NCBI GenBank assembly: GCA_903859155.1
Contig: CAIOLO010000080.1
Location: forward strand, 64,210 to 128,209
From: an uncultured beta proteobacterium
Lineage (GTDB): Bacteria; Pseudomonadota; Gammaproteobacteria; Burkholderiales; SG8-39
Length of the DNA: 64,000 nt
Direction: 5' to 3'
How positions within the stretch are numbered: position 1 is the first letter of the stretch; each line of letters begins with the position of its first letter. Under the pieces are notes generated by a model. The model searched no databases, was not told the origin of the DNA, and saw only the letters and a program-made list of their open reading frames with translations. Made by a program: the position numbers and the translations under genes. This document shows positions 6,872 to 42,121 of this stretch, in pieces.

Positions 6872-8026
6872 ATGAAAAGGCGTTCATTTCTGACGAAATT
6901 GGGGGCAGGCGTGGCCGCTGGTAGCGTCGCAGCGCCAGCCATTGCACAGCAGCAGCCCAGCATCCAGTGGCGCATGGCTTCGAGTTTTCCGAAGAATCTC
7001 GACGCCCTGTTCGGGGCGGCGGAGCAGATCTCGCGGCGTGTCGCCGAGTTGACCGAGGGCCGCTTTCAGATTCGTGTGGCCGCGGCTGGCGAACTGGTGC
7101 CGCCGCTGCAGGTTCTCGATGCGACCCAGGCCGGTACGGTGGAATGCTGCCACACCGCACCCTACTATTATGTTGGCAAGGACCCGGCCTTTGCTTTTGG
7201 TACTGCAGTTCCGTTCGGACTGAATGCGCGCCAGCAAAACGCCTGGAAATACTTTGGCGGCGGCAATGAAGCCATGGCCCTGCTGTACAAGGACTACGGC
7301 GTGCTGGGTTTCCCGGCCGGCAATACCGGCACGCAGATGGCCGGCTGGTACCGCAAGGAAATCAAGACAGTCGCCGATCTCAAGGGGCTGAAAATGCGCA
7401 TCGCCGGCCTGGCCGGGCAGGTACTCGCCAGGCTGGGCGCGGTACCCACCCAGATTCCCGCGGGTGAAATCTATCCGTCGCTGGAGCGTGGCGCCATTGA
7501 CGCAGCCGAATGGGTCGGTCCGTACGACGATGAGCGCCTCGGCCTTTACAAGGTGGCCAAGTTCTACTATTACCCGGGATGGTGGGAAGGTTCGGCGGAA
7601 CTGACTTTTTTTGTCAATGAAAAGAAGTGGGCCGAATTGCCCAAGCACTACCAGGCGGCGCTGGAGAGCGCCTGCGCCGAGGCCAACGCCTTGATGCTCG
7701 CCAAGTATGACGCGCGCAATCCGGAGGCACTGCGCAAACTGATAGGCGAGGGAGCGGAGTTGCGCGCTTTCCCGCGGCCGGTGATGGAGGCGGCGCTCAA
7801 GGCGGCCAACGAACTCTACGACGAGTTGTCGGCGAAGAGCCCGCATTGGAAGCGCATCTACGAGCAGTGGCGCAAATTCCGGTCCGACCAGTTTCTGTGG
7901 TTCCGCGTGGCCGAGAGCAGCTACGACAACTTTGCGTTTGCCGGCGTGCCTGCAAGCGAACGCGCGGCGGAAGCCGCCAGGTCCTCCGCCAAAGGGGCGG
8001 CGAAGGGCGCAGTCAAGAGTCGCTGA
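6872..8026 (+). CDS. TRAP transporter substrate-binding protein (DctP family) with a Tat-like signal
   Basis: 384 aa. MKRRSFLTKLGAGVAAG...AIAQQ twin-arginine-type leader followed by a DctP-family body. SD-like GGAGGA upstream. Confidence 0.9.
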   Translation: MKRRSFLTKLGAGVAAGSVAAPAIAQQQPSIQWRMASSFPKNLDALFGAAEQISRRVAELTEGRFQIRVAAAGELVPPLQVLDATQAGTVECCHTAPYYYVGKDPAFAFGTAVPFGLNARQQNAWKYFGGGNEAMALLYKDYGVLGFPAGNTGTQMAGWYRKEIKTVADLKGLKMRIAGLAGQVLARLGAVPTQIPAGEIYPSLERGAIDAAEWVGPYDDERLGLYKVAKFYYYPGWWEGSAELTFFVNEKKWAELPKHYQAALESACAEANALMLAKYDARNPEALRKLIGEGAELRAFPRPVMEAALKAANELYDELSAKSPHWKRIYEQWRKFRSDQFLWFRVAESSYDNFAFAGVPASERAAEAARSSAKGAAKGAVKSR

Positions 8027-8058
8027 GCGGGTGTCGTCTGTGGATAGCCGGCAGGCAG

Positions 8059-8086
8059 GGCGCGGAAAAATTGCCGCGCCTTTTTT
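8059..8086 (+). terminator. rho-independent terminator downstream of the TRAP binding-protein gene
   Basis: GGCGCGG (8059-8065) pairs with CCGCGCC (8074-8080), followed by TTTTTT (8081-8086). Lies between convergent genes. Confidence 0.6.
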
Positions 8087-8092
8087 GTGCGG

Positions 8093-9586
8093 CTAGCGAC
8101 CGGACTTGAACTGCCGCTGAATCTCCGAGGCCGCGTCCTCCTCCGACGGAGGGCTTTCCTCTGTCGCCGGGGATTCGCCGGGTGCGGCAGGAGAATCAGG
8201 CGCGCTGCGGACGGGTTCGTCCAGCCGTATCTCCACCTTGGCGGGGTCGATGGCGTCATGCCGGGGCACAAAATCGGTCACCAGGCCCGGCCAGTAAATC
8301 AGTATGGCGACAAGCAGCAGTTGCAGCCCCACCCAGGGCACGGCCCCCCAGTAGATGTCCGAACTTTTCACTTCCTTCGGGGCGATGCCTCGCAGATAGA
8401 ACAGAGCCAGTCCGAACGGCGGATGCATGAAGGAGGTCTGCATGTTCGCGCCGAGCAGAACGCCGAACCAGATGAGATCTATGCCCAGCTTCTGCGCGAC
8501 CGGCGCAAGCAGCGGAATGATGATGAAGGCGATCTCGAAAAAATCCAGGAAAAAAGCCAGGAAGAACACGAATAGATTGACGAAGATCAGGAAGCCCGCG
8601 ACGCCGCCAGGCAGCGAGGTGAGCAGCCCCTCCAGCCACAGGTCGCCATCGACGCCGCGGAACACCAGCGAGAACACGGTGGATCCGATCAGTATGTAAA
8701 TCACCATGGCGGTAACGCGCATGGTGGTGGCCATGCCTTCGTGCAGCAGCGGCCAGGTGAGGCGCCGGTGCATGGCCGCGAGCGCCAGTCCGCCCACCGC
8801 GCCCATGGCGCCTGCTTCCGTCGGCGTGGCGAGGCCGAGAAAAATGGTTCCCAATACCAGGAAGATGAGCACCAGCGAGGGCACCATGCCCCACATCACC
8901 CTGGCAAGGAGGGCAGTTCCGCGCAGCGTGCGCGCCTCCGGCGGCAGCGCCGGCATGGCCTCCGGGCGGATGATGCTCAGCACCGCGATATAGATGCAGA
9001 ACAGCAGAACCTGCACGATGCTGGGTCCGATCGCGCCAGCGTACATGTCGCCCACCGAGCGGCCAAGCTGGTCGGCAAGTATCACCAGGACCAGGGACGG
9101 TGGAATCAGCTGGGTGATGGTGCCCGAGGCGGCTATGACCCCGCTGGCGAGCTTCATGTCGTAGCCGTAGCGCATCATGACAGAGAGCGAAATCAGGCCC
9201 ATGGCTATCACCGAGGCGGCGACAGTGCCGGTGATCGCGCCCAGGATGGCGCCGACGATGATCACCGCGTAGGCAAGTCCGCCGCGCACCGGGCCGAACA
9301 GCTGGCCCATGCCCTCCAGCAGATCTTCGGCCAGGCCGCAGCGCTCCAGGATCGCCCCCATGAAGGTGAAGAACGGGATTGCCAGCAGCAATTCGTTGGA
9401 GAGAATGCCGAAGACGCGCTCCGGCAGCGCCTGCAACAGGGCAAACTGGAAAAACCCCAGTTCGATGCCGATGAAACCGAAGAACAGTCCCACCGCGGCC
9501 AGCGAGAATGCCACCGGATAGCCGATCAGCATGAACACGACCAGGCCGCCGAACATCAGCGGCGCCATCAGTTCGCGGGAAATCAT
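8093..9586 (-). CDS. TRAP transporter large permease (DctM family) with an acidic/proline-rich C-terminal tail
   Basis: 497 aa, polytopic and hydrophobic, with DctM-like sequence throughout. The last ~55 aa are hydrophilic (PAAPGESPATEESPPSEEDAASE). Confidence 0.9.
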   Translation of the reverse strand: MISRELMAPLMFGGLVVFMLIGYPVAFSLAAVGLFFGFIGIELGFFQFALLQALPERVFGILSNELLLAIPFFTFMGAILERCGLAEDLLEGMGQLFGPVRGGLAYAVIIVGAILGAITGTVAASVIAMGLISLSVMMRYGYDMKLASGVIAASGTITQLIPPSLVLVILADQLGRSVGDMYAGAIGPSIVQVLLFCIYIAVLSIIRPEAMPALPPEARTLRGTALLARVMWGMVPSLVLIFLVLGTIFLGLATPTEAGAMGAVGGLALAAMHRRLTWPLLHEGMATTMRVTAMVIYILIGSTVFSLVFRGVDGDLWLEGLLTSLPGGVAGFLIFVNLFVFFLAFFLDFFEIAFIIIPLLAPVAQKLGIDLIWFGVLLGANMQTSFMHPPFGLALFYLRGIAPKEVKSSDIYWGAVPWVGLQLLLVAILIYWPGLVTDFVPRHDAIDPAKVEIRLDEPVRSAPDSPAAPGESPATEESPPSEEDAASEIQRQFKSGR

Positions 9587-9602
9587 GCGGTGTGTGGCGC
9601 TG

Positions 9603-10142
9603 TCACTGCAGCGGTTTCTCGTACTGCGGCGGTGTCGGACAGTCGCCGGTGAGGGCGCCCACGCGCTTGATGATCTCCGCGACGCCCTGCAGGCTGATCA
9701 GCAGAAAACCCGCGGGTATCAGCAGTTTCACCGGCCAGCGCAACAGGCCGCCGGCGTTGGCCGAAGTTTCCCCGTGCAGCCAGGCGCCGGCGAACATCGG
9801 CCAGGACAGCCACCCCATGATGATGGTTGCCGGCAGCAGGAACAGCAAGCCTCCCAGAATGTCGATCCAGATCTGCGCGCGCGTGGATAGCCGGCCATAA
9901 AGGATGTCCACGCGCACGTGCTCATTGCGCTGCAGCGTATGCGCGGCGCCCAGCATCACCATGCCGGCGAACAGGTACCACTGGATTTCCAGCCAGGCAT
10001 TGGAGCCGAGGTTCAGACTGTAGCGCGCCAGCGCATTTCCGGCGCTGATGAGACAGGCGAGCAGAACCAGCCAGGTGGCCAGCCGTCCGAAGCGCTCGTT
10101 GAGCCAGTCGATGGCGCGGGAAAAAGCTATCAGGTTCTGCAT
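9603..10142 (-). CDS. TRAP transporter small permease (DctQ family)
   Basis: 179 aa with four hydrophobic segments, immediately upstream of the DctM gene. Its start overlaps the stop of the upstream oxidoreductase by 1 nt (TGATG). Confidence 0.85.
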   Translation of the reverse strand: MQNLIAFSRAIDWLNERFGRLATWLVLLACLISAGNALARYSLNLGSNAWLEIQWYLFAGMVMLGAAHTLQRNEHVRVDILYGRLSTRAQIWIDILGGLLFLLPATIIMGWLSWPMFAGAWLHGETSANAGGLLRWPVKLLIPAGFLLISLQGVAEIIKRVGALTGDCPTPPQYEKPLQ

Positions 10143-29911: not shown

Positions 29912-30001
29912 ATGCTTACCGATACCAAGACACGCCAATGCAAGGCCGAGGGCAAGCCTTTTGTGCTGTCCGACAGTGGCGGGCTTTGGGGTAACAATTG
30001 A
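29912..30001 (+). pseudogene. N-terminal fragment of a P4-type tyrosine integrase (truncated after 29 codons)
   Basis: AGGAGG + ATG opens MLTDTKTRQCKAEGKPFVLSDSGGLWGNN*. This matches the conserved integrase N-terminus (MLTDTKxRxAKxxxKPYKLSDGGGLYL) and then terminates. No catalytic domain follows. Confidence 0.55.
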
Positions 30002-30149
30002 GCGTGGGAGAACCGTAGCGTCCGCATCGACTGGCATCCTGTTTTGTCCGATACATTTCCCCGGTGCGATAAAAAACGTCACCGTAAGGTATCGCAACAC
30101 CAATAGAAACATTCCAGTTTTCATGTTCACCTCCATCCCGCAGCGAGCG

Positions 30150-31523
30150 TTACTGTCGGCATTCAATCTGAAAGGTGAACTGACGGGCTAGATCGCTCAC
30201 ATCGCCAATGCGCAGCTCTTTGGCGGAAGAACGCTCCTCTACTCGCTGCCCCCCCGCTTCAAGGAAAAGCCGGGCCATTGCACCCTGTACGGCAAAGTTA
30301 ACATTCTGTGGGATGTCACCTGTGGATTGCGCTATTCGCATAGCATCAAGTTTGCTGACGACCACGCCAACAAGGTTTCCTCCCATGTCAAGGAGTGGTC
30401 CACCGCTGTTGCCAGGCTGAACTGGTGCCGTGACCTGCAGAAATGCCGTATTTCCGCCCAATCCGGCAAGGGCACTGACATTGCCTAAGGTTACATTCAG
30501 TCCGTTTTGCAACACATCAGGGAGCGGAAATCCAGCCACCATCACACCTTCGCCAGCCTTAATGCCCGGTGCCGAACGAAATCGCACAAATGGGACCGAG
30601 CCTGTAACTTGAACGCGGATCATCGCTAAATCATTGCGCTCGTCACGGCGTACCAACTGTGCGGGATGAGTCCGTCCATCCAGAAGGGCCACAATGGATT
30701 TGCAAGTTTGCGTGACGTGGTTGTTTGTCAACGCGTGTCCCTGAGTGGATACAAAAAAACCGGTGCCAAATGACTGTCCACCTGCGGGCGGTGCGGCGGA
30801 TGGGGACCTTGGTGCTTGTGGGGCCGTTACGACGGGCGAGGTACGGAGGGTCGATCCGTTGAAAACTATATCAGTCAACGTGCAGAGATTTTGTCCACGC
30901 CGTTCTTCGAACCGACGATCTTTGTAACCCACTCGAACGTCGAACTGGCACTGACCATCTTTGGGCATCCGGATTGTCATCCGGTTTCCCGGGTCTACTA
31001 CGACCCCAGCACCCAGTTTATCCTCGCCCCAACTAGTCGCCTCTATCGGGCTGACATAGACAAATAAAATGGACTCTGATGAATTATTGACCAGATCAAA
31101 ATCAGCATTAGATGCGTCCGCTGTCGGAGTACTGATGCCACACGCAATTCTGAATCTAATTTGTCCGACTGAATTGGGTACCACCGCATTCCATGATCCA
31201 CTTGCGTTCGCTGAACCAACCACAGTCCCGGTCCCCATTTGTCCTGAGTTTTCAACATAGGCAGTTATTCGGAATCTAATTTCGGAACAATCGTATTCAA
31301 ATTGAGTTTGCTCTGAAAAATAATTTATGCGTCGATCATTTGTTTTCGCGACACTGTAGTCTGTTAATGACCACATTTTCGCAAATGTGCCTGTGCGGCG
31401 AATTGTTGTCGGATCATGGTATCCAACAGAAGTATCTGTACTAGTGCTTCGTACCCACTCAGCTAATGCATTTTCAGCACATAGCACGAGAACAGCTATC
31501 AGGATGAATAGCAATCGTTTCAT
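30150..31523 (-). CDS. secreted trypsin-like (S1) serine protease with two extra N-terminal domains
   Basis: 457 aa. Signal peptide MKRLLFILIAVLVLCAENALA. C-terminal protease domain with His (LTNNHV), Asp (NDLAMI) and Ser (GNSGGPL). Pro-rich linker (APQAPRSPSAAPPAGG). No PDZ domain seen. Confidence 0.85.
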   Translation of the reverse strand: MKRLLFILIAVLVLCAENALAEWVRSTSTDTSVGYHDPTTIRRTGTFAKMWSLTDYSVAKTNDRRINYFSEQTQFEYDCSEIRFRITAYVENSGQMGTGTVVGSANASGSWNAVVPNSVGQIRFRIACGISTPTADASNADFDLVNNSSESILFVYVSPIEATSWGEDKLGAGVVVDPGNRMTIRMPKDGQCQFDVRVGYKDRRFEERRGQNLCTLTDIVFNGSTLRTSPVVTAPQAPRSPSAAPPAGGQSFGTGFFVSTQGHALTNNHVTQTCKSIVALLDGRTHPAQLVRRDERNDLAMIRVQVTGSVPFVRFRSAPGIKAGEGVMVAGFPLPDVLQNGLNVTLGNVSALAGLGGNTAFLQVTAPVQPGNSGGPLLDMGGNLVGVVVSKLDAMRIAQSTGDIPQNVNFAVQGAMARLFLEAGGQRVEERSSAKELRIGDVSDLARQFTFQIECRQ

Positions 31524-31526
31524 AGA

Positions 31527-31745
31527 TCAGCAAGTTCTTTTATAAGCGCGTTTAGTCGCACCCCTGAAGTTCTGCGCCTGATACTCTCGCACTAGCGTCT
31601 GCGCTTCGGTCATTTGTAGAGGTGTCATTTATATTGCAGCAATGTCGCGGTTCTCCACCGCATCGGCATCACCTTTCGCGGCTGCAAGGTTGAACCACAT
31701 GTGGGCGCGGGCGTCATCCACAGGGACACCTTGCCCCAAGCTATC
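31527..31745 (-). pseudogene. remnant of a Sel1-repeat (SLR) protein with an in-frame stop
   Basis: The minus-strand frame reads ...LGQGVPVDDARAHMWFNLAAAKGDADAVENRDIAAI*MTPLQMTEAQTLVREYQAQNF..., i.e. one terminal Sel1 repeat plus the usual tail. It is interrupted by TAA at 31629-31631. No upstream repeats remain. Confidence 0.4.
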
Positions 31746-31840
31746 TAGCTCAGTTTCCGCCCACACCCTACCCCCTGCTTGACCTAGATCAATTTTCTGC
31801 CCATTGGAGGTATATGCTGGCCGGATACTGGGTGGTAACT

Positions 31841-32182
31841 ATGCGCTTTGTCCCTGCCTTACTGCTGTCGCTGGCGCTATGCCTGCCGATCACTGCCCAT
31901 GCCAAGGGTGGACACGGTGGGTCAAGCCATGCCCACGCAACCAACTCCAGCACTTCCGCATCCGCCCCCGAGACCCCCACGGCAGAATCCAACATAAGCG
32001 CTGCGGCTCGGTCAAGCTTCCAGGACTCTAACCCCCGCCCTGCAACCGACGAGACTTCTGGCGCTTGTCCCGGCTACGTTGCCGATCATATCCAACCACT
32101 GAAGGGTGGTGACGATGATAGTTCGAGCAATATGCACTGGCAGATCAGGGAAGCAGCGAAGATCAAAAATCGGACTGAGTAG
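31841..32182 (+). CDS. small secreted HNH-nuclease-like protein
   Basis: Start set at 31841 (signal peptide MRFVPALLLSLALCLPITAHA). Low-complexity KGGHGGSSHAHATNSSTSAS region. C-terminal CPGYVADHIQPLKGGDDDSSSNMHWQ resembles the short periplasmic HNH family (CPGYvvDHivPL..GG.D...NMQWQ). Confidence 0.6.
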   Translation: MRFVPALLLSLALCLPITAHAKGGHGGSSHAHATNSSTSASAPETPTAESNISAAARSSFQDSNPRPATDETSGACPGYVADHIQPLKGGDDDSSSNMHWQIREAAKIKNRTE

Positions 32183-32237
32183 ATTGTGAAGTTTTCCCGG
32201 ATTTATTATTTTGTCGGTTAGCCCTTGGAGGAATTTT

Positions 32238-32810
32238 ATGAAGATTGCATTCGTGGCATTCATTGCTGCTATTTTATTGTCGAGTTGTGGCTCAATCCCG
32301 CCATTGAACTTTTCGGTTCCCAATGTTGGCGTGTCAAATAAAAAAATTGACGCTGAAATGAAGTCAATGACCATAACGATTGCTCGCCCAGATGAAAAAA
32401 CAGGAGCCCTCCCGGCGGGCATGGAGAATAACGTCCCCCAACTGTGGCAAACAGCTTTGACTGAGTCACTAAACAGAATGGTGATTTTTAGAGATGATGC
32501 AGCCATGAAGGTGAATCTGTCGGTAAAAATCCTCAAGCTTGAGGTGCCGGGTGGCGGCTTTTCAATGACTACGAATGCGGCTGCGCGGTATGAACTAATT
32601 GATCGAAACACCGGGGGTATTATTTTTGCTCAGGATATTTCGTCATCGGGCACCACTCCTGCCGACTTTGCCTTTGCCGGAATAGCCCGTATTCGCGAGT
32701 CAATTAATCGCGCCGTCCAAAACAACATCACGCAATTTCTGCAAGCCTTGGAAACGGTTGATGTTAAAAAGCCAATGTTCCCTGCTAAGGGTAAGGGAGC
32801 TAACGAATGA
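32238..32810 (+). CDS. lipoprotein of unknown function
   Basis: GGAGGA + ATG at 32238. MKIAFVAFIAAILLSSC lipobox. Its stop overlaps the start of the next gene (ATGA at 32807-32810). Confidence 0.7.
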   Translation: MKIAFVAFIAAILLSSCGSIPPLNFSVPNVGVSNKKIDAEMKSMTITIARPDEKTGALPAGMENNVPQLWQTALTESLNRMVIFRDDAAMKVNLSVKILKLEVPGGGFSMTTNAAARYELIDRNTGGIIFAQDISSSGTTPADFAFAGIARIRESINRAVQNNITQFLQALETVDVKKPMFPAKGKGANE

Positions 32811-33271
32811 GATTACAGCAGGTTGTTTGTGCCACCATCGTCGTTCTTGCCGGATGTGCGTCCAACATTTCGCCGCAGACCTACTCTGTTGGCGCTGTTG
32901 GACAAGTCAATCGCACTGTAGCTGCCACTGTGGTGAGTGTTAGGGAAGTCGATGTGTCTGGCACCAACCGCGTGGGCGGCAGTGCCGGAACAGCAGCAGG
33001 TGCCGTTGTTGGGTCGTCCGCCGGTGGGAACAACTCAAGGGGCAATATCGTCGGGGCAATCGGAGGCGCGGTTGTTGGTGGCCTTGCAGGAGCCGCAATC
33101 GAAGCGAATGCTACGAAGCAGAAAGGCATGGAATATGTCGTCGAAACCGAGAACGGTAATCTCATGACGATTGTCCAGGGTGCAGACACATTATTCACCG
33201 TCGGGCAAAAAGTTTTCGTGCTTTATGGCTCTCCTTCGAGGCTTATTGCGGACCCTCGGACGAAGCAATGA
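32807..33271 (+). CDS. glycine-zipper outer-membrane lipoprotein (SlyB/Pcp-like)
   Basis: 154 aa. VVLAGC lipobox. Gly/Ala zipper GSAGTAAGAVVGSSAGG...GAIGGAVVGGLAGAAI. SlyB-like C-terminal segment. Confidence 0.8.
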   Translation: MRLQQVVCATIVVLAGCASNISPQTYSVGAVGQVNRTVAATVVSVREVDVSGTNRVGGSAGTAAGAVVGSSAGGNNSRGNIVGAIGGAVVGGLAGAAIEANATKQKGMEYVVETENGNLMTIVQGADTLFTVGQKVFVLYGSPSRLIADPRTKQ

Positions 33272-33373
33272 AAAAGAGCGCGGATCCCAGTAGCCTATAT
33301 CAACATTCAAGGTTCCGTCACGATCTGGAAATACGGCTTTTCTTGTCGTGAAGAAAATATAGCCTGAATATGA

Positions 33374-33952
33374 TTAGCGTTTGTCCAACTGCTTCAATAG
33401 CCGATACTTGCACCATGCGGCAAGTGTAAATGTGTCCTGCACCTCGGAGCGTTCAATCATTCCTTCGAACTCCTGAAAATCGAAAAAGCGAAATTCCCCA
33501 AGGCCTAACTCGCAATCCTCTCGCTTTGTAAGACGCCCACCTTCGGCCACATATAGATGAACTCTTGCCGCCAACACTCCAGAATCGGGAGTGATAAATC
33601 CCAGTGAACGAGAGCGTTTCGGATCGACAACCAACCCGGTTTCCTCCAGCAGTTCTCTCAATGCAGCGGTTTGTTCATCCTCTCCTTCGTCTACAAAACC
33701 GTGTGGTATTTCCAGAGAAAATCCACGCAAGGCAGGACGGTAAATTTTTATCAACCCGACTTGTTCATCGACAATAGGCAAGATAGCCACCCCGGTCACG
33801 AGGTTTTTTCCTGCATGTTTTGGAGCAACCACCAGATAGTCAGGCACTTCGTCACCAGCCATGTCGGACACATGGTCGAAATAGACAAAGAACTTTGAGT
33901 TCTCGCATGCCAGGCGCCTGGAGATCACCTCAATCGGTGGGTCTTTATCCAT
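33374..33952 (-). CDS. NUDIX hydrolase (ADP-ribose pyrophosphatase-like)
   Basis: 192 aa. Nudix box GFVDEGEDEQTAALRELLEETGL. AAGGGA SD upstream. Confidence 0.85.
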   Translation of the reverse strand: MDKDPPIEVISRRLACENSKFFVYFDHVSDMAGDEVPDYLVVAPKHAGKNLVTGVAILPIVDEQVGLIKIYRPALRGFSLEIPHGFVDEGEDEQTAALRELLEETGLVVDPKRSRSLGFITPDSGVLAARVHLYVAEGGRLTKREDCELGLGEFRFFDFQEFEGMIERSEVQDTFTLAAWCKYRLLKQLDKR

Positions 33953-34016
33953 ATTCCCTTTTGCTCAGAGGATTGAACGACAGCCGTAGTCTAAGAGCTC
34001 GCTGCAGTGATCGCGC

Positions 34017-35453
34017 CTAGAACGGGTAGATGCTGACCGCCACACCTGATGCATCTGAACTCACGCGGATGAGAGGTTGGGATGCGTCTGCCGAGGTCAA
34101 TTCTTTTTCGCCTGAGCCGGTTCTTGAATAGCGCAGCTTCCAGGTGCCTGCGGGATACTTGAAATGGTGCTGGCTTCCCCAGGCGAGGTCGACGTTCTCT
34201 TGCGTGGTGCCAGAATCCTTCACTTCCCGCCAAATCGTTGATGAAATTTTCCAGTTCGTCAATCCACCCGGTGCGGCAGTCTGGCTTGCTGGTGCGTCCG
34301 CAGCGTGAAACGTGCCGGCACTCCAGCAGGCCGCTTGCTCGGTTTCTGACACAAGTCTTATTATCCATCCCCCCATATTCTGTGATCCGGCTTGGCCCGC
34401 GCTTGGCACAAACGCGCTGGTACCCGGCTTGATTCTCCAACCATCTGCCAGTTCTTGTGGCGTCACTACGAGGCATTGCCGGTTTGTCGCTTCAGTACTA
34501 CCCGCATCCAGTAGGAATTCCCGTGAAATCTGGATTTTCTCTTCCGTTTTTACCGTGGTGATGGCGTGCTCCATGCTCATGCGACCAAACGAACCCGGCA
34601 GAATGGCGAGTTCGACCTCCAATTGCTCGATTGCTGGAGTGGAGAAAAAATTCGAAGAAGGGACCCAGGGAATGCCAATAACCCCTGTTTTCCAGATTAT
34701 TTGTCCCGGGTCCGCCGCGTCCAAATCGGTGGTGGGTACATTGAACCCAAGGCGGTCCGACCCGTACTCGAAAGCCTTGTAGGATTTGCCGTCAATCGAC
34801 AACTGCGGAACAGCCCCACCAGTATAGGAACTGGGGAGGTTTCCACGCACGGTGATGGACTGAAACGGCATAGAGGAAAACAGGAAAATCGGACCGCTGG
34901 CATTCAGCAGGGGGGCGGCGCTCGGGGGGCGGAGTCGGTATGCGATTGCTTGGGCGCGCTCACCCGCGTCCTTCACGGTCATGTCCACAGGCGAGTAAAG
35001 ATTCGATATCAGAGGTTCCAGTTCGGACTTGAGTTTATTCTCCTGCTCGCCAAGAGCAGAAGTGCTCAGGGACAGGCTGTCCTTGAATGTCGCCCGGCCC
35101 CGCGCCAGTGCATTCTGTGCGCGCACGCCGGCCACAACCAGTACTTCACGCTGGGCCTGTTTGGCTCGTTGCACCAAAACCCGGACTTCGGCCTGGCTAG
35201 TCGCGAGGAACGCGCCCAAGGTTCCTGGCTCCTGTGCTGCGTCCTCGCTGCCCTGATCGCGCTTGAGCGTCTTGTAGAGTCCGGGCGCGGCCAGCACCGT
35301 CACGGCCCCCGCCCCGGCACCGACGGCCAAGGTAGCGGCACCGGTATGCGCGGCCACTGCGGCGGCGGCAGTGTGAGCGGCGGGAATCATGGCCGCACAT
35401 CCGCTGAGTGCAAGGACACCAGAACCTATGAAACCGGCAAGAATGTATTGCAT
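34017..35453 (-). CDS. large lipoprotein/membrane-anchored protein of unknown function
   Basis: 478 aa. VLALSGC lipobox followed by an Ala/Gly-rich hydrophobic stretch, a predicted helical region, then a long beta-rich C-terminal part. I recognise no family motif. Confidence 0.7.
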   Translation of the reverse strand: MQYILAGFIGSGVLALSGCAAMIPAAHTAAAAVAAHTGAATLAVGAGAGAVTVLAAPGLYKTLKRDQGSEDAAQEPGTLGAFLATSQAEVRVLVQRAKQAQREVLVVAGVRAQNALARGRATFKDSLSLSTSALGEQENKLKSELEPLISNLYSPVDMTVKDAGERAQAIAYRLRPPSAAPLLNASGPIFLFSSMPFQSITVRGNLPSSYTGGAVPQLSIDGKSYKAFEYGSDRLGFNVPTTDLDAADPGQIIWKTGVIGIPWVPSSNFFSTPAIEQLEVELAILPGSFGRMSMEHAITTVKTEEKIQISREFLLDAGSTEATNRQCLVVTPQELADGWRIKPGTSAFVPSAGQAGSQNMGGWIIRLVSETEQAACWSAGTFHAADAPASQTAAPGGLTNWKISSTIWREVKDSGTTQENVDLAWGSQHHFKYPAGTWKLRYSRTGSGEKELTSADASQPLIRVSSDASGVAVSIYPF

Positions 35454-35974
35454 GGGCCTACCTTTTGCAGAGACTGTTTGCCCTTATAAACCGGCAATGA
35501 CCAGGGCATCCGCCACCGCTGGCCCGCCACCCGGGGCAGCGCGGCAGTTTAGCGATAACACGGCGCACAATTGGAGACTTATGCACACCCCCTTGGAAAT
35601 CCACTGCTGGCGCTGGTTTTCACAGGTCCCGTAGAGAAAACGGCCTAACTGGTTATATTTTAATAAGAAAAAATATTGGCTGCAAAACACTCAACTCAAA
35701 AAATCCCTTATGCGTAAGGTATTTACATTATATCGCCGACGATACTCACACACTTATGCACAGAAATTGTTGGCAACTCAAAATCCCATGCGAATTGAGG
35801 TTGTTATGGCTGCAATTTGAATTGCTTATGAGGAGTTTTCGGGGCGCACAAATATTGTTCGGCGTCAACAAAAACCGTGCGCGAACAAATCACTCACCGG
35901 CGTCACGTGCGGGCACGCCACGCTGACAGTCTGGATGTCCGGTTATGACCTCAGCGGCCATTCATTCGGATAAA

Positions 35975-37531
35975 TCAAACCTTGAATTTCCTGACCATAC
36001 TGGAGAGCTGCACCATTTGACCGTTCAGATCGCTGGCGGCGCCAAGGGATTCGGCAGCACTTGCGGCGTTCTTCTGCGTGACCAGATTGATCTGGGAAAC
36101 TGAATCGTTGATTCGCTCAATGCTTCCCGCCTGCGCCATTGTCGCGCTGGATATGTCGTTGGCAAGACGACTGATCGCATTCGCACCTTCGGCTGCTGCG
36201 GCAAGATTCTTGTCTATCTCCCTGGACAGATCGACCCCGTTTCTCGATTGCGCGACGGCGCTCTTTATCAGCATTTCGCTGCGGCGCGCCGCATCGGTCG
36301 AACGCGCCGCCAGGCCGTTGATCTCATCGGTGAGTATGCTGAAATCCGCTCCGGCCCCGCCGACGTGCGCCGCCTCTATCGCCGCGTTTATGCCGAGGAG
36401 ATTGGAGAAGATCGCCAATTCGTTCATGTTGTCGATGAGTTTCAGAATCTCCTTGAGAAACGGGTCATCCCTGTTCATGGCCATTTTCTTTTCCAGGGCC
36501 TTCATGTTCCTGGCAGTCTCGGTGCAGCGAGTGGACAGTTTTCGAATTTCTTCTGCCACTACTCCAAATCCTCCGGCAGAGGTCCTCACGCGTACCGCTT
36601 TTTCGCTGGCGCTGGTGGACAGTTTGCCGGTCTCTTTCGCAATGGAATCGATTTCAGTGACAATGGTGGCGGTGTTTTCCGCAGAGGCGCTGATCTCCGA
36701 CATCGCCGCTACCATTTGCCCCATCGACTGTTTGGCCGTCGTCACCGCCGCGGCCGCCCGCTTGGCATTCTGCTGCGCTTCATCGGTGTTTTTTGCACTG
36801 CTTCTGGCGCTGTCAGCCAGTTTTTCGATATTGCCAGCAGCGTCTTCGAGTCGGCGCTTTTGCTCGTCCGCGCCTTCGGCAACGGTAGAACTGGATTGCA
36901 TCACGCTCCGGCCCACGCCTGTGGCCAGTTCGACGGTATTGGTAACCTGGGAGATTGCGCCGTGCAGCGTATCCGCAGTCGCATTCATGGCATCCCTTAT
37001 GACCGCGTGCTCGCCACGATATCTGCCGTGCATCCGCGCATTCAGGTCATAGGTTGCGAGTCTGCCCAAAACGTCGCTCGCCTCATGCATGGGATCTACC
37101 ACTGCATCCAGGGTCTTGTTCATTCCGGATATCAACTCTTTCCAGATGCCTTCGTAATCCCAATCGTTGCCCCTGGTGCGCAGCCTGCCTTCCCTGACGT
37201 TGTCCGTGAGGTTCAAGGTCTCACGATGCATGCCGTAGAGAACCGCCAACAGCGTATTGATACTCTGCTTGATACGGTCATATTCGCCTTTTTGTTCATC
37301 TATGACGAAAGGCGGGATGCGTCCGTGAGCGATCTCGTCCAGCGCGCTGGCGGCAAGCCGCATCGGCGAGACAAGGTTGTCCAGCATCCGATTGACCAGG
37401 CCGACCAGTTCGGCATCCTGCCCCGAGAACCTGGAGGCATCTCCGCGGACATCCAGCTTGCCCTCAATCATCGCCTCTGCCACGGTGTTGACGACGTCAA
37501 AGACGGTTGCTTGTTTGGGTTTTGGCGTCAT
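35975..37531 (-). CDS. soluble methyl-accepting chemotaxis-type signalling protein (HAMP-like repeats plus an MCP signalling domain with a duplicated hairpin tip)
   Basis: 518 aa with no hydrophobic segments. Three HAMP-like units (GKLDVRGD...LVNRMLDNL; GRLRTRGN...GMNKTLDAV; YDLNARMH...). The C-terminal arm (IERINDSVSQINLVTQKNAASAAES) and tip motifs (GGFGVVAEEIRKLS; NLLGINAAIEAAHVG) are typical of MCP signalling domains. Starts 6 nt after the protease stop. Confidence 0.85.
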   Translation of the reverse strand: MTPKPKQATVFDVVNTVAEAMIEGKLDVRGDASRFSGQDAELVGLVNRMLDNLVSPMRLAASALDEIAHGRIPPFVIDEQKGEYDRIKQSINTLLAVLYGMHRETLNLTDNVREGRLRTRGNDWDYEGIWKELISGMNKTLDAVVDPMHEASDVLGRLATYDLNARMHGRYRGEHAVIRDAMNATADTLHGAISQVTNTVELATGVGRSVMQSSSTVAEGADEQKRRLEDAAGNIEKLADSARSSAKNTDEAQQNAKRAAAAVTTAKQSMGQMVAAMSEISASAENTATIVTEIDSIAKETGKLSTSASEKAVRVRTSAGGFGVVAEEIRKLSTRCTETARNMKALEKKMAMNRDDPFLKEILKLIDNMNELAIFSNLLGINAAIEAAHVGGAGADFSILTDEINGLAARSTDAARRSEMLIKSAVAQSRNGVDLSREIDKNLAAAAEGANAISRLANDISSATMAQAGSIERINDSVSQINLVTQKNAASAAESLGAASDLNGQMVQLSSMVRKFKV

Positions 37532-37537
37532 GGTGGG

Positions 37538-38020
37538 CTACGCAGAGTGGATGGATGGGTTCGAGCCGATTCGCAACAAGGACATCACTTTCTCGACTGC
37601 CGGCTCGGTGGCCTCTGTCACCTCTTTGCTCATGTGCGCGCGCGGCAGGTCGAAACAACGCCCTTCCACGCCCACAAGGGAGATCTGCTTGGGCATGCGT
37701 TCCGGATACAGCGCCGCGCCGATTTCCATCGTCTCCCGCAGTCCGATCCCATGTGCGGATATGGCGTTGGCCCGGCTTCGGGGGATGTCATCCATTCCCA
37801 GGCAGTGCACTGTTCCTACAGCGGCGCCCAGGCACATCGCATCGACAACGATCATGGCGTCTTCCGTTCCATCGAGCAGATCCAGCAAGGCGATTCCACC
37901 GACGCTGCAGTATTCCAGCCTGACCCCGGGCGGCAACCTTCGTGCCAGGCTGGCGTGGACCTCGAAGCCGATTGCATCATCGGCCACTAATTCGTTCCCG
38001 ATGCACACGACAAGAGGCAT
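37538..38020 (-). CDS. [NiFe]-hydrogenase maturation endopeptidase (HycI/HoxW/FrhD family)
   Basis: 160 aa. VCIGNELVADDAIG and AHGIGL motifs typical of hydrogenase C-terminal processing proteases. Its ATG abuts the stop of the upstream gene (TAGATG). Confidence 0.85.
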   Translation of the reverse strand: MPLVVCIGNELVADDAIGFEVHASLARRLPPGVRLEYCSVGGIALLDLLDGTEDAMIVVDAMCLGAAVGTVHCLGMDDIPRSRANAISAHGIGLRETMEIGAALYPERMPKQISLVGVEGRCFDLPRAHMSKEVTEATEPAVEKVMSLLRIGSNPSIHSA

Positions 38021-38482
38021 CTATTGCGTCGCAATCTTTATCTGGCAGGATTTCCCAACCCTGGCGATTTCTGACTTTACCGGCCGCCGCATCAACTCAT
38101 TGACGATGCCGTCAAAATACGCGTGGTACAGCTTGCATGTCGCTCCGCCGGTTTGCTTGCCCGAACTGGTGCAAAGGTCGCGAATGAAGCAGGTACCTAC
38201 CGTGGTATCGGCCCCGTTCTCGATGACGGAGGTGACCGAAATGTCGAACCCGGCCTTCATGCGTTCGGACAAGACTGCAATCGTCTCGGCCAGAGAAGGC
38301 TCTCCCAGATGCAGGGGCAGCTTTTTTGCCATGTCCCGCCCGGCCACCCTGCCCACCGGGCCGGTGGCTCCACCCATGACGTTGTCGATGGTGCTGGCGA
38401 ATGCGTCGACCAGAAAAGCCACCTCCATCATGGCGTGATCGTGGTCCTCGGCTGTCAGATCACCTGCGGGCGCAACTTTCAC
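38021..38482 (-). CDS. V4R-domain protein (second copy in the operon)
   Basis: Start assigned to the GTG at 38482 (GGGGAG 6-7 nt upstream), overlapping the ferredoxin stop as GTGA. An alternative ATG lies at 38431. C-terminal GTCFIRDLC...GGATCKLYHAYFDGIVNEL...GKSCQIKI fits the cysteine-containing V4R (4-vinyl reductase) pattern. Confidence 0.7.
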   Translation of the reverse strand: MKVAPAGDLTAEDHDHAMMEVAFLVDAFASTIDNVMGGATGPVGRVAGRDMAKKLPLHLGEPSLAETIAVLSERMKAGFDISVTSVIENGADTTVGTCFIRDLCTSSGKQTGGATCKLYHAYFDGIVNELMRRPVKSEIARVGKSCQIKIATQ

Positions 38483-38736
38483 AGAAATCTCCCCACCCGA
38501 TTGCAGAACTCGCTGTCGCGGTAAAAGTTCTTTACTTCGTGGTGCCCGGAATGTTTGATGGCATGAGACGGGCAGATATAGCCGCACGACAGGCAGGCAA
38601 TGCAATCCTCGGCATGTTCAACTTTGCACAGCCGGGCATCCTGATCGAATCGGAACACCTTGGTTGGGCAGATATCCACGCACAATTCGCAGCCGCGGCA
38701 GGCCCTCTCGTGGATCTCGATAACGACCGGATTCAT
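38479..38736 (-). CDS. 2x[4Fe-4S] ferredoxin
   Basis: 85 aa. CRGCELCVDICP and CIACLSCGYICP cluster motifs. Its ATG overlaps the large-subunit stop (ATGA). Confidence 0.85.
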   Translation of the reverse strand: MNPVVIEIHERACRGCELCVDICPTKVFRFDQDARLCKVEHAEDCIACLSCGYICPSHAIKHSGHHEVKNFYRDSEFCNRVGRFL

Positions 38737-40184
38737 CCGGCCCTCCTGATCGAGCGCAGCAACTGTCCGGAGCGCCGGATTGTGATTTCCATCGGCATCT
38801 CACCCAATGCATGAGTGGCGCAGGACAGGCAGGGATCGTAGCAGCGGATGCTGAACTCGACGGCATTGAGCAGGGCGTCGTCGCTTGATTTGCCGACGAC
38901 ATGCGACACGGCGGCCTGCTCGATCGAACGGTTGATGAGTGCATAGTTCTGCTGTGTTGCGACGATCAGATTGGCAGCCCTGACTATGCCCTGATCATCG
39001 ATCTCATAGTCGTGAATCAAAGTTCCCCGCGGCGCCTCGACATGCCCGACGCCGCGTCCGCCTGCATACTTCACCGGTACCCGCGTCTGGCCGAAAACCG
39101 CCTTGTCCCGCATGATTTCGGCGCCGCGCTCCAGTGCCCAGATGGTTTCCATTAATTTGGCGTATGCCTGAAATACCGTTACATGGCACGGTGTACCGGC
39201 TACCGACTTAAAGGTTTCATATTCGCGATCGGCCCATTCGGTTCCGTATTGCCCGGCGACATTTATGCGCGCAAGCGGTCCGACGCGATAGTCGTGCAGT
39301 GCCGCGTCGGCATCGAGACTCTCGCGGATGCGGACCGGCTTCATATACGACCAGTCCAGCACCGATTCCGACATGTATTTGTCGTAATCCCCGGTAGGGA
39401 ACTTGAGGCGGTGCTTGCCACTCTGGTCAATGACCGCAATGCTGCCCTCGATCATCGACAGCTTGCCGTTCTTGAGCGTGCCGGCACCCCAGGTTGGAAC
39501 AACCCATTCGGTGAGCATCGAGGGGTGCTTTTCGGCGGTAGCCATCAACAGTTGTTTGATTACCGGAGCAAGGTCCCCCATCAAAACCAGCCCCTCGGAA
39601 ATCCACTTGGTCAACTGCGCCGCATGGGCTTCATCGAGCACAAAAGTGATACCTCCTGCAACGGAAGTGACCGGATGCGTACCTCGGCCTCCGACGAGTT
39701 CGTTGATCTTCTGGCCTATCGATCTGATCCGCAGTGCTTTTTTGGCGACCTCCGGGTTGGCTTTGACAATTCCGACAATATTTCGGATTGCGGGATCGGC
39801 ATCCAGCCCGAGCACCAGATCCGGCCCCTGCAGTACGAACAGCGACAGGCTGTGAGAATGAATCAGGTGCCCCATGTACATCAGCTCCCGCAGCAGCATC
39901 GCAGCCGGCGGAGCCTGGACGCCGGCCGCCGAATCCAGCGCATTGGAGGCGGCGAGGTGATGGGCGGTAGGACATACGCCGCAAATACGGGCGGTAATGT
40001 GCGGCATGCGGTCGGCTTCCATGCCGACCAGTATTTTTTCAAATCCGCGGAGCTCGTTGACGATCAGGCCGGCCGACTTCAGCACACCGTCATCGTCAAG
40101 GTCGATGAACACCTTGGCGTGACCTTCAATCCGGGTTACCGGATCGATCTTGATGGTTCTGGTTGTTGCGCTATTGGGTGTCAT
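38733..40184 (-). CDS. [NiFe]-hydrogenase large subunit, cytoplasmic group-3-like
   Basis: 483 aa. N-terminal RIEGH. L1 motif RICGVCPTAHH. L2 motif DPCLSCATH followed by a 25-aa C-terminal extension (ALGEMPMEITIRRSGQLLRSIRRAG). Confidence 0.9.
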   Translation of the reverse strand: MTPNSATTRTIKIDPVTRIEGHAKVFIDLDDDGVLKSAGLIVNELRGFEKILVGMEADRMPHITARICGVCPTAHHLAASNALDSAAGVQAPPAAMLLRELMYMGHLIHSHSLSLFVLQGPDLVLGLDADPAIRNIVGIVKANPEVAKKALRIRSIGQKINELVGGRGTHPVTSVAGGITFVLDEAHAAQLTKWISEGLVLMGDLAPVIKQLLMATAEKHPSMLTEWVVPTWGAGTLKNGKLSMIEGSIAVIDQSGKHRLKFPTGDYDKYMSESVLDWSYMKPVRIRESLDADAALHDYRVGPLARINVAGQYGTEWADREYETFKSVAGTPCHVTVFQAYAKLMETIWALERGAEIMRDKAVFGQTRVPVKYAGGRGVGHVEAPRGTLIHDYEIDDQGIVRAANLIVATQQNYALINRSIEQAAVSHVVGKSSDDALLNAVEFSIRCYDPCLSCATHALGEMPMEITIRRSGQLLRSIRRAG

Positions 40185-41130
40185 ATTTTGCGCCCTGATA
40201 ATCCTGGTCCGCCTCTGCGATCCATCTCCTTATGAGAAACGTAGGCTTCTCGCCTATCATTTGCGTTGCCATGGTGTAGGAATAGTGGGACTTGGAGGTG
40301 CGTTCGATCTCCTTGACAATGGCGTCACGGGGAATTTTCGTCAGTTTGGACATGCGCTCTGCGATCTCGGTCCTGATATCGCGGTTCGGCTCGGTCAGCA
40401 CCTGCATGGTTGCGCCGGCACATCCGGTGCACGGAATCCCGTTTTGTGGACAGGGGGACAGGCACCTGTCGATAGTCGCCGATCCCATGCACAGATACCC
40501 CTGGCTGAGGAAACATTGGTCGGCATTGGCGATGCCGTCCGAATTTGAGCGGATGGCGTCCACATCCGTTTTTCGCATCTGGCGGGTGCAATGGCCGCAG
40601 ACAGACTCCTGCGTTGCCTTTGGCGTTCTCCCCTCCACCAGGGCCAGCAATGCATCAAACACGAAAGCCGGATGCGGCGGACATCCTGGAAGATAGAGAT
40701 CCACATCGATCGCCTTGTCGAGCGGGGAAACCGTCGATTCCAGCGGCGACACTTCGCAGCTGGGCGGCTGGGCTGAGACCGTCGTCTTGTTGTTGAGGTA
40801 GACCGCGTCCGCGATCTCTTCCCGGGTATGCACGTTGCCGGCACCTGCAGGGCCGCCGAACACGGCGCAGGAACCCCAGGCGATAACCAGATCGCAGCTT
40901 TTTCTCATCTCCATGGCTGCGTGCCTGTCATGCTCGTTCCTGATTGCGCCGGATACGAGACCGACCGTCGCATGCGGATAGTCCTTGATATCGGTCAGCA
41001 CCGGGCAGCGCTGTATGGTCACCGAATCCAGGACCGCCAGTATCTTCTCGTGCAGATCGACGATGGCAATATGGCAACCGGAGCAATCGCTCAACCATTC
41101 CGTGTTCACAGTTACGGGCACGGCGCTCAC
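40171..41130 (-). CDS. [NiFe]-hydrogenase small subunit, three-cluster type, no Tat signal
   Basis: 319 aa with a GTG start (GGGAGG upstream). Proximal-cluster cysteines DCSGC...GSCAVFGG...LPGCPP. Medial and distal cysteines CGHC...CFLSQGYLCMG...CLSPCPQNGIPCTGC as in FrhG/MvhG-like subunits. About 70-aa hydrophilic C-terminal tail. Confidence 0.85.
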   Translation of the reverse strand: MSAVPVTVNTEWLSDCSGCHIAIVDLHEKILAVLDSVTIQRCPVLTDIKDYPHATVGLVSGAIRNEHDRHAAMEMRKSCDLVIAWGSCAVFGGPAGAGNVHTREEIADAVYLNNKTTVSAQPPSCEVSPLESTVSPLDKAIDVDLYLPGCPPHPAFVFDALLALVEGRTPKATQESVCGHCTRQMRKTDVDAIRSNSDGIANADQCFLSQGYLCMGSATIDRCLSPCPQNGIPCTGCAGATMQVLTEPNRDIRTEIAERMSKLTKIPRDAIVKEIERTSKSHYSYTMATQMIGEKPTFLIRRWIAEADQDYQGAKYDTQ

Positions 41131-41663
41131 GCAGCCTCCCGGTTCCTGACGATGAGGCGCTTGTAGCAGGCGTTTTCCCCGCTGTGCATGATCTCCAGAG
41201 TCGATTCACGGCCCATGACGTTCTGCAGCGCGCCGGCAAAAAAGCCGAACATCATGTTGCACAGCGAGCCTTTCTGGGCGTGTCCAAAGCGGAAAAGGGA
41301 CTGCCGTATCATGCAGTCACGGAACACCAGCATCACCTCGCTGCCGCCGTCCACCTTCTGCACCAGATCGGGACGATCATGCGGCTTGAATGTTTCGAAC
41401 ATCCAGAGATAATTGTTTTCCAGCAATACGTTGCGTGTCGCGGCCAGTGCCTCTTCAATGTCATCGGTTTTATCGACGCCGTCGGAGAGCTTTTTCCCAA
41501 GGTTCTTGCCGGCAAGATAGGAAATGCTGTTGGCGGATTCGCCTACCGCCTGTTCCATGCCGCTGGAAATGGCGCCAAGAAAAATCATCGCCTGCTGCAG
41601 TTTTGCCCGCCGGTCGGCGAGGGGCGTTGTCGGCGCCGTGGACCGGGAATCCTCATGTGCCAA
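41127..41663 (-). CDS. V4R-domain protein (first gene of the operon)
   Basis: 178-aa ORF with a TTG start (start uncertain; in-frame ATG at 41588). VFRDCMIRQSLFRFGHAQKGSLCNMMFGFFAGAL...GENACYKRLIV fits the V4R pattern. Its stop overlaps the small-subunit GTG (GTGA). Confidence 0.7.
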   Translation of the reverse strand: MAHEDSRSTAPTTPLADRRAKLQQAMIFLGAISSGMEQAVGESANSISYLAGKNLGKKLSDGVDKTDDIEEALAATRNVLLENNYLWMFETFKPHDRPDLVQKVDGGSEVMLVFRDCMIRQSLFRFGHAQKGSLCNMMFGFFAGALQNVMGRESTLEIMHSGENACYKRLIVRNREAA

Positions 41664-42121
41664 GATTCGTCGCCTTCTCTGTGGGGTGCGCCTGTACTAG
41701 TAGATTCTTTAACCTTGAGACTGAAACGCAGGCCAAAGATAATGTGCCCAAATTTGCCGTCTTTATAAGTCGCGAGTAAGGGGGGTATTTCAGTGCTATT
41801 CGCCGCTTTGTTTCGTGGCGGGCGGGAACCAGACTGGCCTGGCGCCAGTAACACCATGCGGAACCGCCTCAAACCGGGATTTGAACAGAGGCGCTTTTGC
41901 TGCGCCATAAGGTAATACGGGGAAAAGGTTCAGCGACAGGCCCGGCGGGAAGTAATATCGCCCAATGTGATACAAGATCCTTACGATGCTCTGGCGCGGG
42001 TGCAAACAATGGGGCGATTGCACAATCGGAAAGGCATTTTGACGGCATCCTTGATGGCATCGGAACGCATGGCGTCTTTTGTCATCAATTAAGATCGGGT
42101 TTGATTGCACAGAATGACGTT

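Follow-up and report, generated by a model that had tools for sequence, protein, structure and literature searches.

A chemoreceptor-like protein with a duplicated hairpin tip is conserved in a [NiFe] hydrogenase gene cluster

The tip of the signalling hairpin of methyl-accepting chemotaxis proteins (MCPs) is among the most invariant segments of bacterial proteins, because it must fit the CheA/CheW lattice. DosM of Vibrio cholerae (VC1403, of the F9 systems) has two signalling domains and is a rod with one of them at each end, spanning two baseplates; its homologues mostly lack a sensory domain and belong to partial gene sets with a CheW-type adaptor (PMC7534058, PMC9321776). MiST3 distinguishes twelve heptad classes of MCPs, none of which has 46 heptads (PMC6943060), and the Geobacteraceae hold unusual long MCP classes that include '40+24H' (PMC3543383, PMC6943060, PMC8235581). 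On the hydrogenase side, HydDB proposes MCP-coupled H2 sensing for [FeFe] group C2, which is the sole MCP linkage among the class-table entries examined (PMC5037454). Here we describe a gene for a 518-residue soluble MCP-like protein (35975 to 37531) in a 64,000-nucleotide stretch of contig CAIOLO010000080.1 from an uncultured beta proteobacterium, referred to as the window. The signalling domain of the protein carries an internal duplication that spans the tip, and its gene is the last of a [NiFe] hydrogenase cluster. All features of the gene and of the cluster lie on the minus strand, and coordinates are those of the window.

On the basis of Pfam searches, the 518-residue protein belongs to the MCP family, with 113.6 bits for HAMP_2 and 102.8 bits for MCPsignal (PF00015), well above the 34.6-bit cut-off of the latter. 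The MCPsignal match was split into two stretches instead of forming a single continuous domain, the best stretch covering residues 359 to 485 against profile positions 32 to 172, and NCBIfam models were likewise split into two. The initial annotation of the window had reported two tandem segments that align without gaps to the canonical MCP tip and had proposed that profile comparison as a check. Both segments were recovered when 40-residue pieces of the protein were compared, ungapped and with BLOSUM62, to Tsr residues 371 to 410. Tip copy 1 (IAKETGKLST...LSTRC; residues 297 to 336, 36524 to 36643; IAKETGKLSTSASEKAVRVRTSAGGFGVVAEEIRKLSTRC) scored 65 and tip copy 2 (LAIFSNLL...LAARS; residues 372 to 411, 36299 to 36418; LAIFSNLLGINAAIEAAHVGGAGADFSILTDEINGLAARS) scored 89, compared with 21 for the next-best 40-mer of the protein and with 500 shuffled controls, whose maximum score averaged 15.9 and never exceeded 40. 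The second segment thus lies where it had been placed, the first lies one residue away from the position originally given (298 to 337), and the spacing between them is 75 residues and not about 73. Each copy is canonical in one half and decayed in the other: the N- and C-halves scored 25 and 40 in copy 1 and 54 and 35 in copy 2, bearing out the complementary degeneration that had been claimed.

The two segments are part of a longer internal repeat. When the protein was compared to full-length Tsr by phmmer, residues 145 to 303 matched Tsr 219 to 377 and residues 375 to 517 matched Tsr 374 to 516, both without gaps, so the protein corresponds to a hairpin of Tsr length (36H-like) with 75 residues inserted exactly at the tip. 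BLASTP aligned residues 276 to 348 to residues 351 to 423 with 23% identity (E = 7e-7), and hhalign of the family sub-alignments matched residues 288 to 348 to residues 363 to 423 with 88% probability (E = 3e-6). The region is an internal duplication spanning the tip, as had been supposed, and its order is D1-tip1-A1-linker-D2-tip2-A2. The descending arm (residues 191 to 316, 36584 to 36961) aligned without gaps to Tsr 265 to 390 and ends in D1, its final 34 residues, which is the decayed N-half of tip copy 1. A1 follows (residues 318 to 351, 36479 to 36580), then a linker of six residues (NRDDPF, residues 352 to 357, 36461 to 36478), D2 (residues 358 to 391, 36359 to 36460), and the ascending arm (residues 393 to 518, 35978 to 36355), which aligned without gaps to Tsr 392 to 517. 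The signalling domain most likely began as a 36H-type MCP hairpin in which a stretch of about 75 residues, including the tip, was duplicated in tandem.

The duplication is a property of a family. More than 100 full-length homologues, at 54 to 85% identity and all with both tips, were retrieved from the database, and two tips were carried by 145 of the 240 proteins collected at first, the single tip of canonical relatives scoring 147 to 189. The spacing was 71 to 94 residues in all 120 close homologues, which answers the homologue comparison suggested in the initial annotation, and in 25 of the 120 matches to a distant member (P0121, 39% identical), the other 95 being mostly ordinary single-tip MCPs. 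When 1.84 billion representatives were searched with a profile, long poly-HAMP MCPs dominated the results, and only nine new double-tip clusters were gained at the 50% identity level. After this search 162 double-tip proteins could be scored, and the duplication was present in all of them, across several phyla. The variation in tip spacing is located in the linker between the copies, which differs in length among members (linker windows of 4 to 25 residues) and contains many G, S, T, D, and P residues. Distant members have more canonical tips, such as P0135 with scores of 116 and 130, which argues that the duplication is old and that decay has gone furthest in the clade of the window. The names of the homologue clusters were informative only as the generic 'methyl-accepting chemotaxis protein'.

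Complementary retention of the tip residues is family-wide. The mean half-scores, in the order tip 1 N-half, tip 1 C-half, tip 2 N-half, and tip 2 C-half, were 25, 39, 45, and 35 in the close set and 41, 59, 58, and 36 in the distant set, and in the 145 proteins taken together the C-half of tip 1 and the N-half of tip 2, which are the inner halves, were more canonical than the outer ones. We compared 207 canonical tips with the 162 double-tip proteins, taking a position as conserved when at least 90% of canonical tips agreed and as kept when at least 80% of a copy did. Of the 33 near-invariant canonical positions, 25 were kept in at least one copy and 8 in both. The residues N376, N381, A383, E385, and A387 (Tsr numbering) of the canonical N-helix surface were kept in copy 2 only, G395, V398, V399, A400, and R404 of the canonical C-helix were kept in copy 1 only, and Q374, L380, A389, and G390 were lost from both. 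In the protein itself, A1 retains the equivalents of G395, F396, V398, V399, A400, E402, R404, and L406, and D2 those of N376, L378, N381, A382, A383, E385, A386, and A387. Within the close family, the invariant residues of tip 1 are S318, A319, G321, F322, V324, V325, A326, E328, I329, R330, L332, and C336, and those of tip 2 are L379, G380, N382, A383, A388, V390, G394, F397, T401, I404, L407, and A408. Since the duplication, the inner segments A1 and D2 have kept the canonical C-helix and N-helix tip residues, the outer segments D1 and A2 have kept mostly apparent core positions, and the U-turn residues have been lost in both copies.

This pattern is best fitted by a composite tip assembled from two half-sites, one of the arrangements that the initial annotation had put forward, with the N-helix residues only in copy 2 and the C-helix residues only in copy 1. 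A1 and D2 are antiparallel neighbors in either of the folds considered below, with the register of the canonical C and N helices, and the linker joins them, so the two retained halves must pack together. Judged from the residues retained, A1 and D2 jointly carry a nearly full canonical tip surface, which amounts to a circular permutation of the tip.

To obtain a predicted fold, AlphaFold2 was run on the full-length protein (115 aligned sequences) and on a fragment comprising residues 255 to 450 (a more diverse alignment of 47 sequences). The full-length model consisted of helices at residues 174 to 351 and 358 to 517, with a predicted local confidence score (pLDDT) of about 88 to 91 across the signalling domain and a break only at 352 to 357; the fragment model had helices at 256 to 351 and 357 to 449 and a mean pLDDT of 91.9. 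In both models the A1 helix runs on from D1 and the D2 helix runs into A2, DSSP assigned the linker as the sole turn of the hairpin, and neither run produced a turn at either old tip. The fragment model superposed on the Tsr hairpin 1qu7 with a template modeling (TM) score of 0.82 (by query) and a root-mean-square deviation of 2.2 to 3.0 Å, and the models superposed on the MCP hairpins 3zx6 and 2ch7 with TM scores of 0.76 to 0.81 by target. The lengths agree with this fold: the 75 residues divide into 35 + 5 + 35, and each arm becomes 161 residues, or 23 heptads from the Tsr-equivalent start. We consider it probable, with moderate confidence, that the signalling domain is a single elongated hairpin of about 46 heptads (about 23 per arm) in which the variable linker forms the new distal turn. 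The former tips would most likely be straight helices lying face to face, about 34 residues above the new turn. Residue 351-k is opposite residue 358+k in a hairpin of this kind, which would place the old apex at 317 across from the old apex at 392. In the same model the A1/D2 bundle would have the canonical helix pairing and register and would be closed at the opposite end, reversed relative to the stalk. The hydrophobic heptad phase is unbroken through both old tips, and it is equally unbroken through the real U-turns of 92 canonical MCP controls. Phase continuity was therefore dropped as a means of discriminating between folds, and its presence in canonical U-turns indicates that the geometry of a tip lends itself to straightening.

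The W-shaped or double-tipped bundle proposed in the initial annotation is the strongest competitor of the elongated hairpin, and we regard it as unlikely while giving it real weight. Both old tips would still be U-turns, with D1-A1 and D2-A2 as hairpins, and the resulting intramolecular four-helix bundle would mimic a canonical dimer tip within a single chain; the homodimer would be Y-shaped with two heads, and asymmetric decay would fix one face as able to bind CheW/CheA and the other as inert. Such a bundle would have been the default fold just after the tandem duplication, since both copies would still turn, and its four helix pairings would all be native-like. In canonical receptor dimers F396 stacks with F396', and the two equivalents in this protein, F322 and F397, are both nearly invariant and could stack in the same manner. 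Both tips are close to canonical in some members, P0135 and P0131 among them. The two AlphaFold2 runs speak against such a bundle, their continuous helices having the single turn at 352 to 357 even in the isolated fragment, where a compact four-helix bundle was available. The residues of the turn also speak against it. Among 93 canonical tips A389, G390, G393, and G395 were all 100% conserved, as were the other residues of the U-turn motif R388-A389-G390-x-x-G393-x-G395-F396, which occurs twice in the 518-residue protein but is altered in each copy. In the family, positions 389, 390, 393, and 395 are occupied by M/V/I, R, A, and G in tip 1 and by V, E/D, G, and E/D in tip 2, the full motifs reading R-(M/V/I)-R-(I/T)-S-A-G-G-F and H-V-(E/D)-G-A-G-N-(E/D)-F. 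A389 is thus replaced in both copies, G390 and G393 in tip 1, and G390 and G395 in tip 2, leaving each copy without two of the three canonical invariant glycines, and in most members Ile or Thr occupies the apex of tip 1. About two glycines do remain in each old tip, a point in favor of retained turns, and kinks or alternative states of the elongated hairpin are possible. Other considerations also weigh against the elongated fold: it is drawn from AlphaFold2 models of the monomer, and the method may favor long helices; the pLDDT of the five models of the fragment run ranged from 64 to 92, and the structural readout was taken from the best model; and covariation cannot separate the two folds because both use the same helix-helix pairings. 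By analogy, the two, with D pairing with A in each, may stand to one another as the open and closed forms of a domain-swapped protein do.

The genetic context of the elongated or W-shaped receptor is that of a hydrogenase. The MCP gene is the last of a seven-gene cluster headed by the gene for a 178-residue protein (41127 to 41663), which occupies the same position in nearly all loci with a range of 153 to 178 residues. It is followed by genes for a [NiFe] hydrogenase small subunit, VhuG/MvhG-like (40171 to 41130; PF01058; NF045875, 227.8 bits), the large subunit, nearest Vhu/Mvh (38733 to 40184; PF00374; NF041785 VhuA, 345 bits), an 85-residue 2x[4Fe-4S] ferredoxin (38479 to 38736; Pfam Fer4 families), a 153-residue paralogue of the 178-residue protein (38021 to 38482; BLASTP between the two, E = 6e-7), and, directly upstream of the MCP gene, a hydrogenase maturation endopeptidase of the HycI/HybD type (37538 to 38020; PF01750; TIGR00072, 109.8 bits). 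The large subunit ends in DPCLSCATH followed by a C-terminal extension of about 25 residues. We surveyed 71 genome loci by tblastn with the proteins of the window, and the seven genes were colinear in nearly all of them; the loci came from Geobacterales, Desulfobacterales, Ignavibacteria, Acidobacteriota, Gemmatimonadota, and proteobacterial metagenome-assembled genomes. The divergent double-tip members P0129, P0232, and P0137, one of which bears a PAS domain, share the same cluster, and so did every family member whose surroundings were examined. A fusion of protease and MCP, about 692 residues long, occurs in some lineages related to Geobacter (two homologue clusters, P0016 and P0027; L009, 7515 to 9554). 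The 518-residue protein is probably the counterpart of MvhV, annotated in the Mvh cluster of Geobacter sulfurreducens.

The N-terminal 190 residues of the protein (36962 to 37531) are a poly-HAMP module, matched by HAMP_2 in two stretches and by phmmer to the poly-HAMP histidine kinase chains 9trk and 9trj and to Aer2 (3vol), and no ligand-binding or sensor domain was recognizable in them. Input is therefore probably received by protein contact within the cluster. This module is the part that stays with the hydrogenase: in one Acidobacteriota locus (L070, 7959 to 9647) a short canonical single-tip MCP domain occupies the same slot behind the same poly-HAMP N-terminus. Extra HAMP repeats were seen in Acidobacteriota versions of the cluster (L070, 7959 to 9647; L069, about 7900 to 10130). 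The 153- and 178-residue paralogues, which have conserved cysteines, bracket the hydrogenase subunits in nearly all loci; they had no Pfam or NCBIfam match, and a V4R-like identity was set aside for want of Pfam support. They are candidates for coupling the enzyme to the poly-HAMP module.

Evidence for a chemosensory output was sought in the flanks of the loci and in the protein itself. Of the 61 loci with enough flank, 21, all of the Geobacterales type, have a single-domain cheW gene immediately upstream of the cluster and in the same orientation; the adjacent CheW of L040 (3316 to 3828) is a single domain of 170 residues (Pfam CheW, E = 2.4e-38), and no cheA was found in the L040 flank, the one flank scanned with Pfam. 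The canonical single-tip MCP in the same slot of L070 also argues for a Che-type output. Together with the adjacent cheW genes it weakens the suggestion in the initial annotation that the protein signals to something other than a CheA/CheW array. The methylation consensus [ASTG][ASTG]xx[EQ][EQ]xx[ASTG][ASTG] had no match in the 518-residue protein, and the number of sites per protein averaged 0.1 in 145 double-tip proteins versus 2.9 in 93 canonical ones, all of which had at least one. The methylation motifs have been lost in the double-tip family.

That loss is shared ground with a second alternative, which we think improbable: the protein may be a scaffold or hydrogenase accessory protein whose coiled coil assembles, localizes, or regulates the enzyme with no CheA/CheW output, its tip-like motifs being relics that serve bundle stability or bind proteins of the cluster. 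Its co-location with the hydrogenase genes and its fusion to the maturation protease in some lineages would be accounted for, as would the loss of Q374, L380, A389, and G390 from both copies and the absence of cheW from the side of most clusters and, as far as detected, from the window. Relics of this kind are hard to reconcile with the canonical tip surface still present in A1 and D2, where 100% of members retain N381, 91% retain E385, and 99 to 100% retain V398, V399, and A400; this is strong purifying selection, for which bundle stability alone is hard to credit. The position of cheW as the immediate upstream gene in 21 loci and the substitution of a canonical MCP domain in L070 also count against a pure scaffold. 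An artefact of assembly, frameshift, or chance coiled-coil similarity, for which nothing but the low identity of the copies (23%) could be adduced, is a negligible explanation given that the same gene was called on six independent public contigs with identical products, that the architecture is kept in 162 proteins of several phyla, and that both segments score far above the shuffle maximum.

On balance we lean toward the interpretation that the protein is a hydrogenase-coupled transducer with a circularly permuted composite tip, signalling H2 or redox status. It would provide the signalling part of the conserved gene cluster for a cytoplasmic [NiFe] hydrogenase; its poly-HAMP N-terminus would receive the state of the complex of hydrogenase, ferredoxin, and small proteins, and the composite tip would relay it to CheW and to a CheA encoded elsewhere, with no methylation-based adaptation. 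Both the H2/redox sensing and the CheW/CheA output are inferred from context, and several observations weigh against them. No cheW, cheA, or cheY was found in the window, where the CheW and CheY queries were approximate and most open reading frames (ORFs) unannotated, and cheW is not adjacent to the cluster in 40 of the 61 loci. The normal maturation protease and the C-terminal extension make the hydrogenase look catalytic and not like a dedicated group 2b sensor. Furthermore, the passages of two proteomics papers that name MvhV present it as a detected, annotated protein and give no link to H2 sensing (PMC7894505, PMC8691401).

A bolder form of the transducer hypothesis, which we consider doubtful, is that the composite tip is a functional CheW/CheA-binding module of inverted polarity, inserted upside-down in the trimer-of-dimers lattice. 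A short hairpin of about 5 nm would then stand among the receptor tips, and the stalk, the poly-HAMP module, and the hydrogenase complex would project through the baseplate. If true, the inverted module would connect a bulky redox enzyme of the cytoplasm to a chemosensory array in a new way and would offer H2 taxis a direct molecular route. Duplication and straightening of the tip, if confirmed, would be an unrecognized way to lengthen both MCP arms symmetrically in one step. In this family the tip was duplicated, each copy kept a different share of its conserved surface, and the former U-turns probably lie inside a longer bundle; the family shows that rebuilding of the MCP tip by circular permutation is possible. 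Its strict linkage to a [NiFe] cluster across several phyla, often with cheW, makes it a candidate for H2- or hydrogenase-dependent redox sensing, for example in Geobacter, and the link to H2 sensing is testable in genetically tractable organisms.

Other features of the locus were noted. Consecutive genes of the cluster overlap by 4 to 14 nucleotides at 38479 to 38482, 38733 to 38736, 40171 to 40184, and 41127 to 41130, and the overlaps suggest translational coupling of the hydrogenase subunits, ferredoxin, and small proteins. The G+C content is 0.50 to 0.58 at 30000 to 42000 versus 0.62 to 0.65 in the flanks; horizontal transfer may have brought in the hydrogenase-MCP cluster and its downstream genes as an island, which would fit the patchy spread of the family across phyla. 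Just downstream of the MCP gene is a 478-residue ORF (34017 to 35453, minus strand) with an N-terminus resembling a lipoprotein signal (...LALSGCAAM) and no family match in Pfam or NCBIfam; it is present in the closest contigs and absent from the remaining surveyed loci. Farther on, the product of 30150 to 31523 (minus strand) joins an Adhesin_E domain to a trypsin-like peptidase domain. In two unrelated loci, TIR-domain genes follow the MCP gene at a short distance (L040, 9625 to 10518; L073, 13140 to 13694), maybe by coincidence.

Comparison with the described systems places this protein near, but outside, each of them. Like the canonical 36H MCPs (E. coli Tsr; PDB 1qu7, 3zx6, and 8c5v), it has HAMP followed by an antiparallel coiled-coil hairpin, both arms match Tsr without gaps (219 to 377 and 374 to 516), MCPsignal scores above its cut-off, and the models superpose on MCP hairpins. 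Unlike them, it has the 75-residue tip duplication, has lost A389 and G390 in both copies, is predicted to turn at a variable linker instead of a conserved motif, lacks consensus methylation sites, and is a soluble protein with a poly-HAMP N-terminus in a hydrogenase operon. Like DosM, it is a cytoplasmic MCP in which a single chain contains tip-like signalling elements in more than one place. Unlike in DosM, only about 75 residues around the tip are duplicated, nested within one domain (about 276 to 348 and 351 to 423) whose arms each match Tsr once, and the gene resides in a hydrogenase cluster and not in an F9 cluster with a triple CheW, the adjacent CheW of L040 having a single domain. A DosM-like rod topology was ruled out, as arms of 126 + 75 + 126 residues cannot close. 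The initial annotation had noted no earlier description of a double tip: a limited literature search found no prior description of a nested tip duplication, whereas receptors with two signalling domains were already known in DosM (PMC7534058, PMC9321776). If the elongated model is right, the protein resembles the long-hairpin classes (48H, 52H, 58H, 64H, and '40+24H') in being simply a longer hairpin, of about 46 heptads. That length lies outside the twelve MiST3 classes (PMC6943060), and membership in MiST '64H' or Geobacter '40+24H' was rejected on length, about 46 heptads (161 + 161 residues) versus about 64 (about 448 residues); the literature examined gives that class no structural description. 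The internalized duplicated tip also sets it apart from the long MiST classes, for which the portions of the literature examined describe none.

The hydrogenase is similarly placed. It resembles Mvh/Vhu (group 3c), but falls below the equivalog cut-offs (VhuA, 345 versus 800 bits; VhuG, 228 versus 450 bits), and Pfam and NCBIfam searches of the cluster genes turned up neither MvhD nor Hdr families. The large subunits of [NiFe] group 2b are not known to have a C-terminal extension or a dedicated maturation protease. The present enzyme differs from that group in having both the extension and a HycI/HybD-type protease, and it differs from [FeFe] group C2 in being a [NiFe] enzyme nearest Vhu/Mvh. 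What it has in common with the putative H2-sensing hydrogenases, namely [NiFe] group 2b, where HupUV/HoxBC is paired with a histidine kinase, and the MCP-linked, 'chemotactic' [FeFe] group C2, is that the hydrogenase is genetically coupled to a signalling protein.

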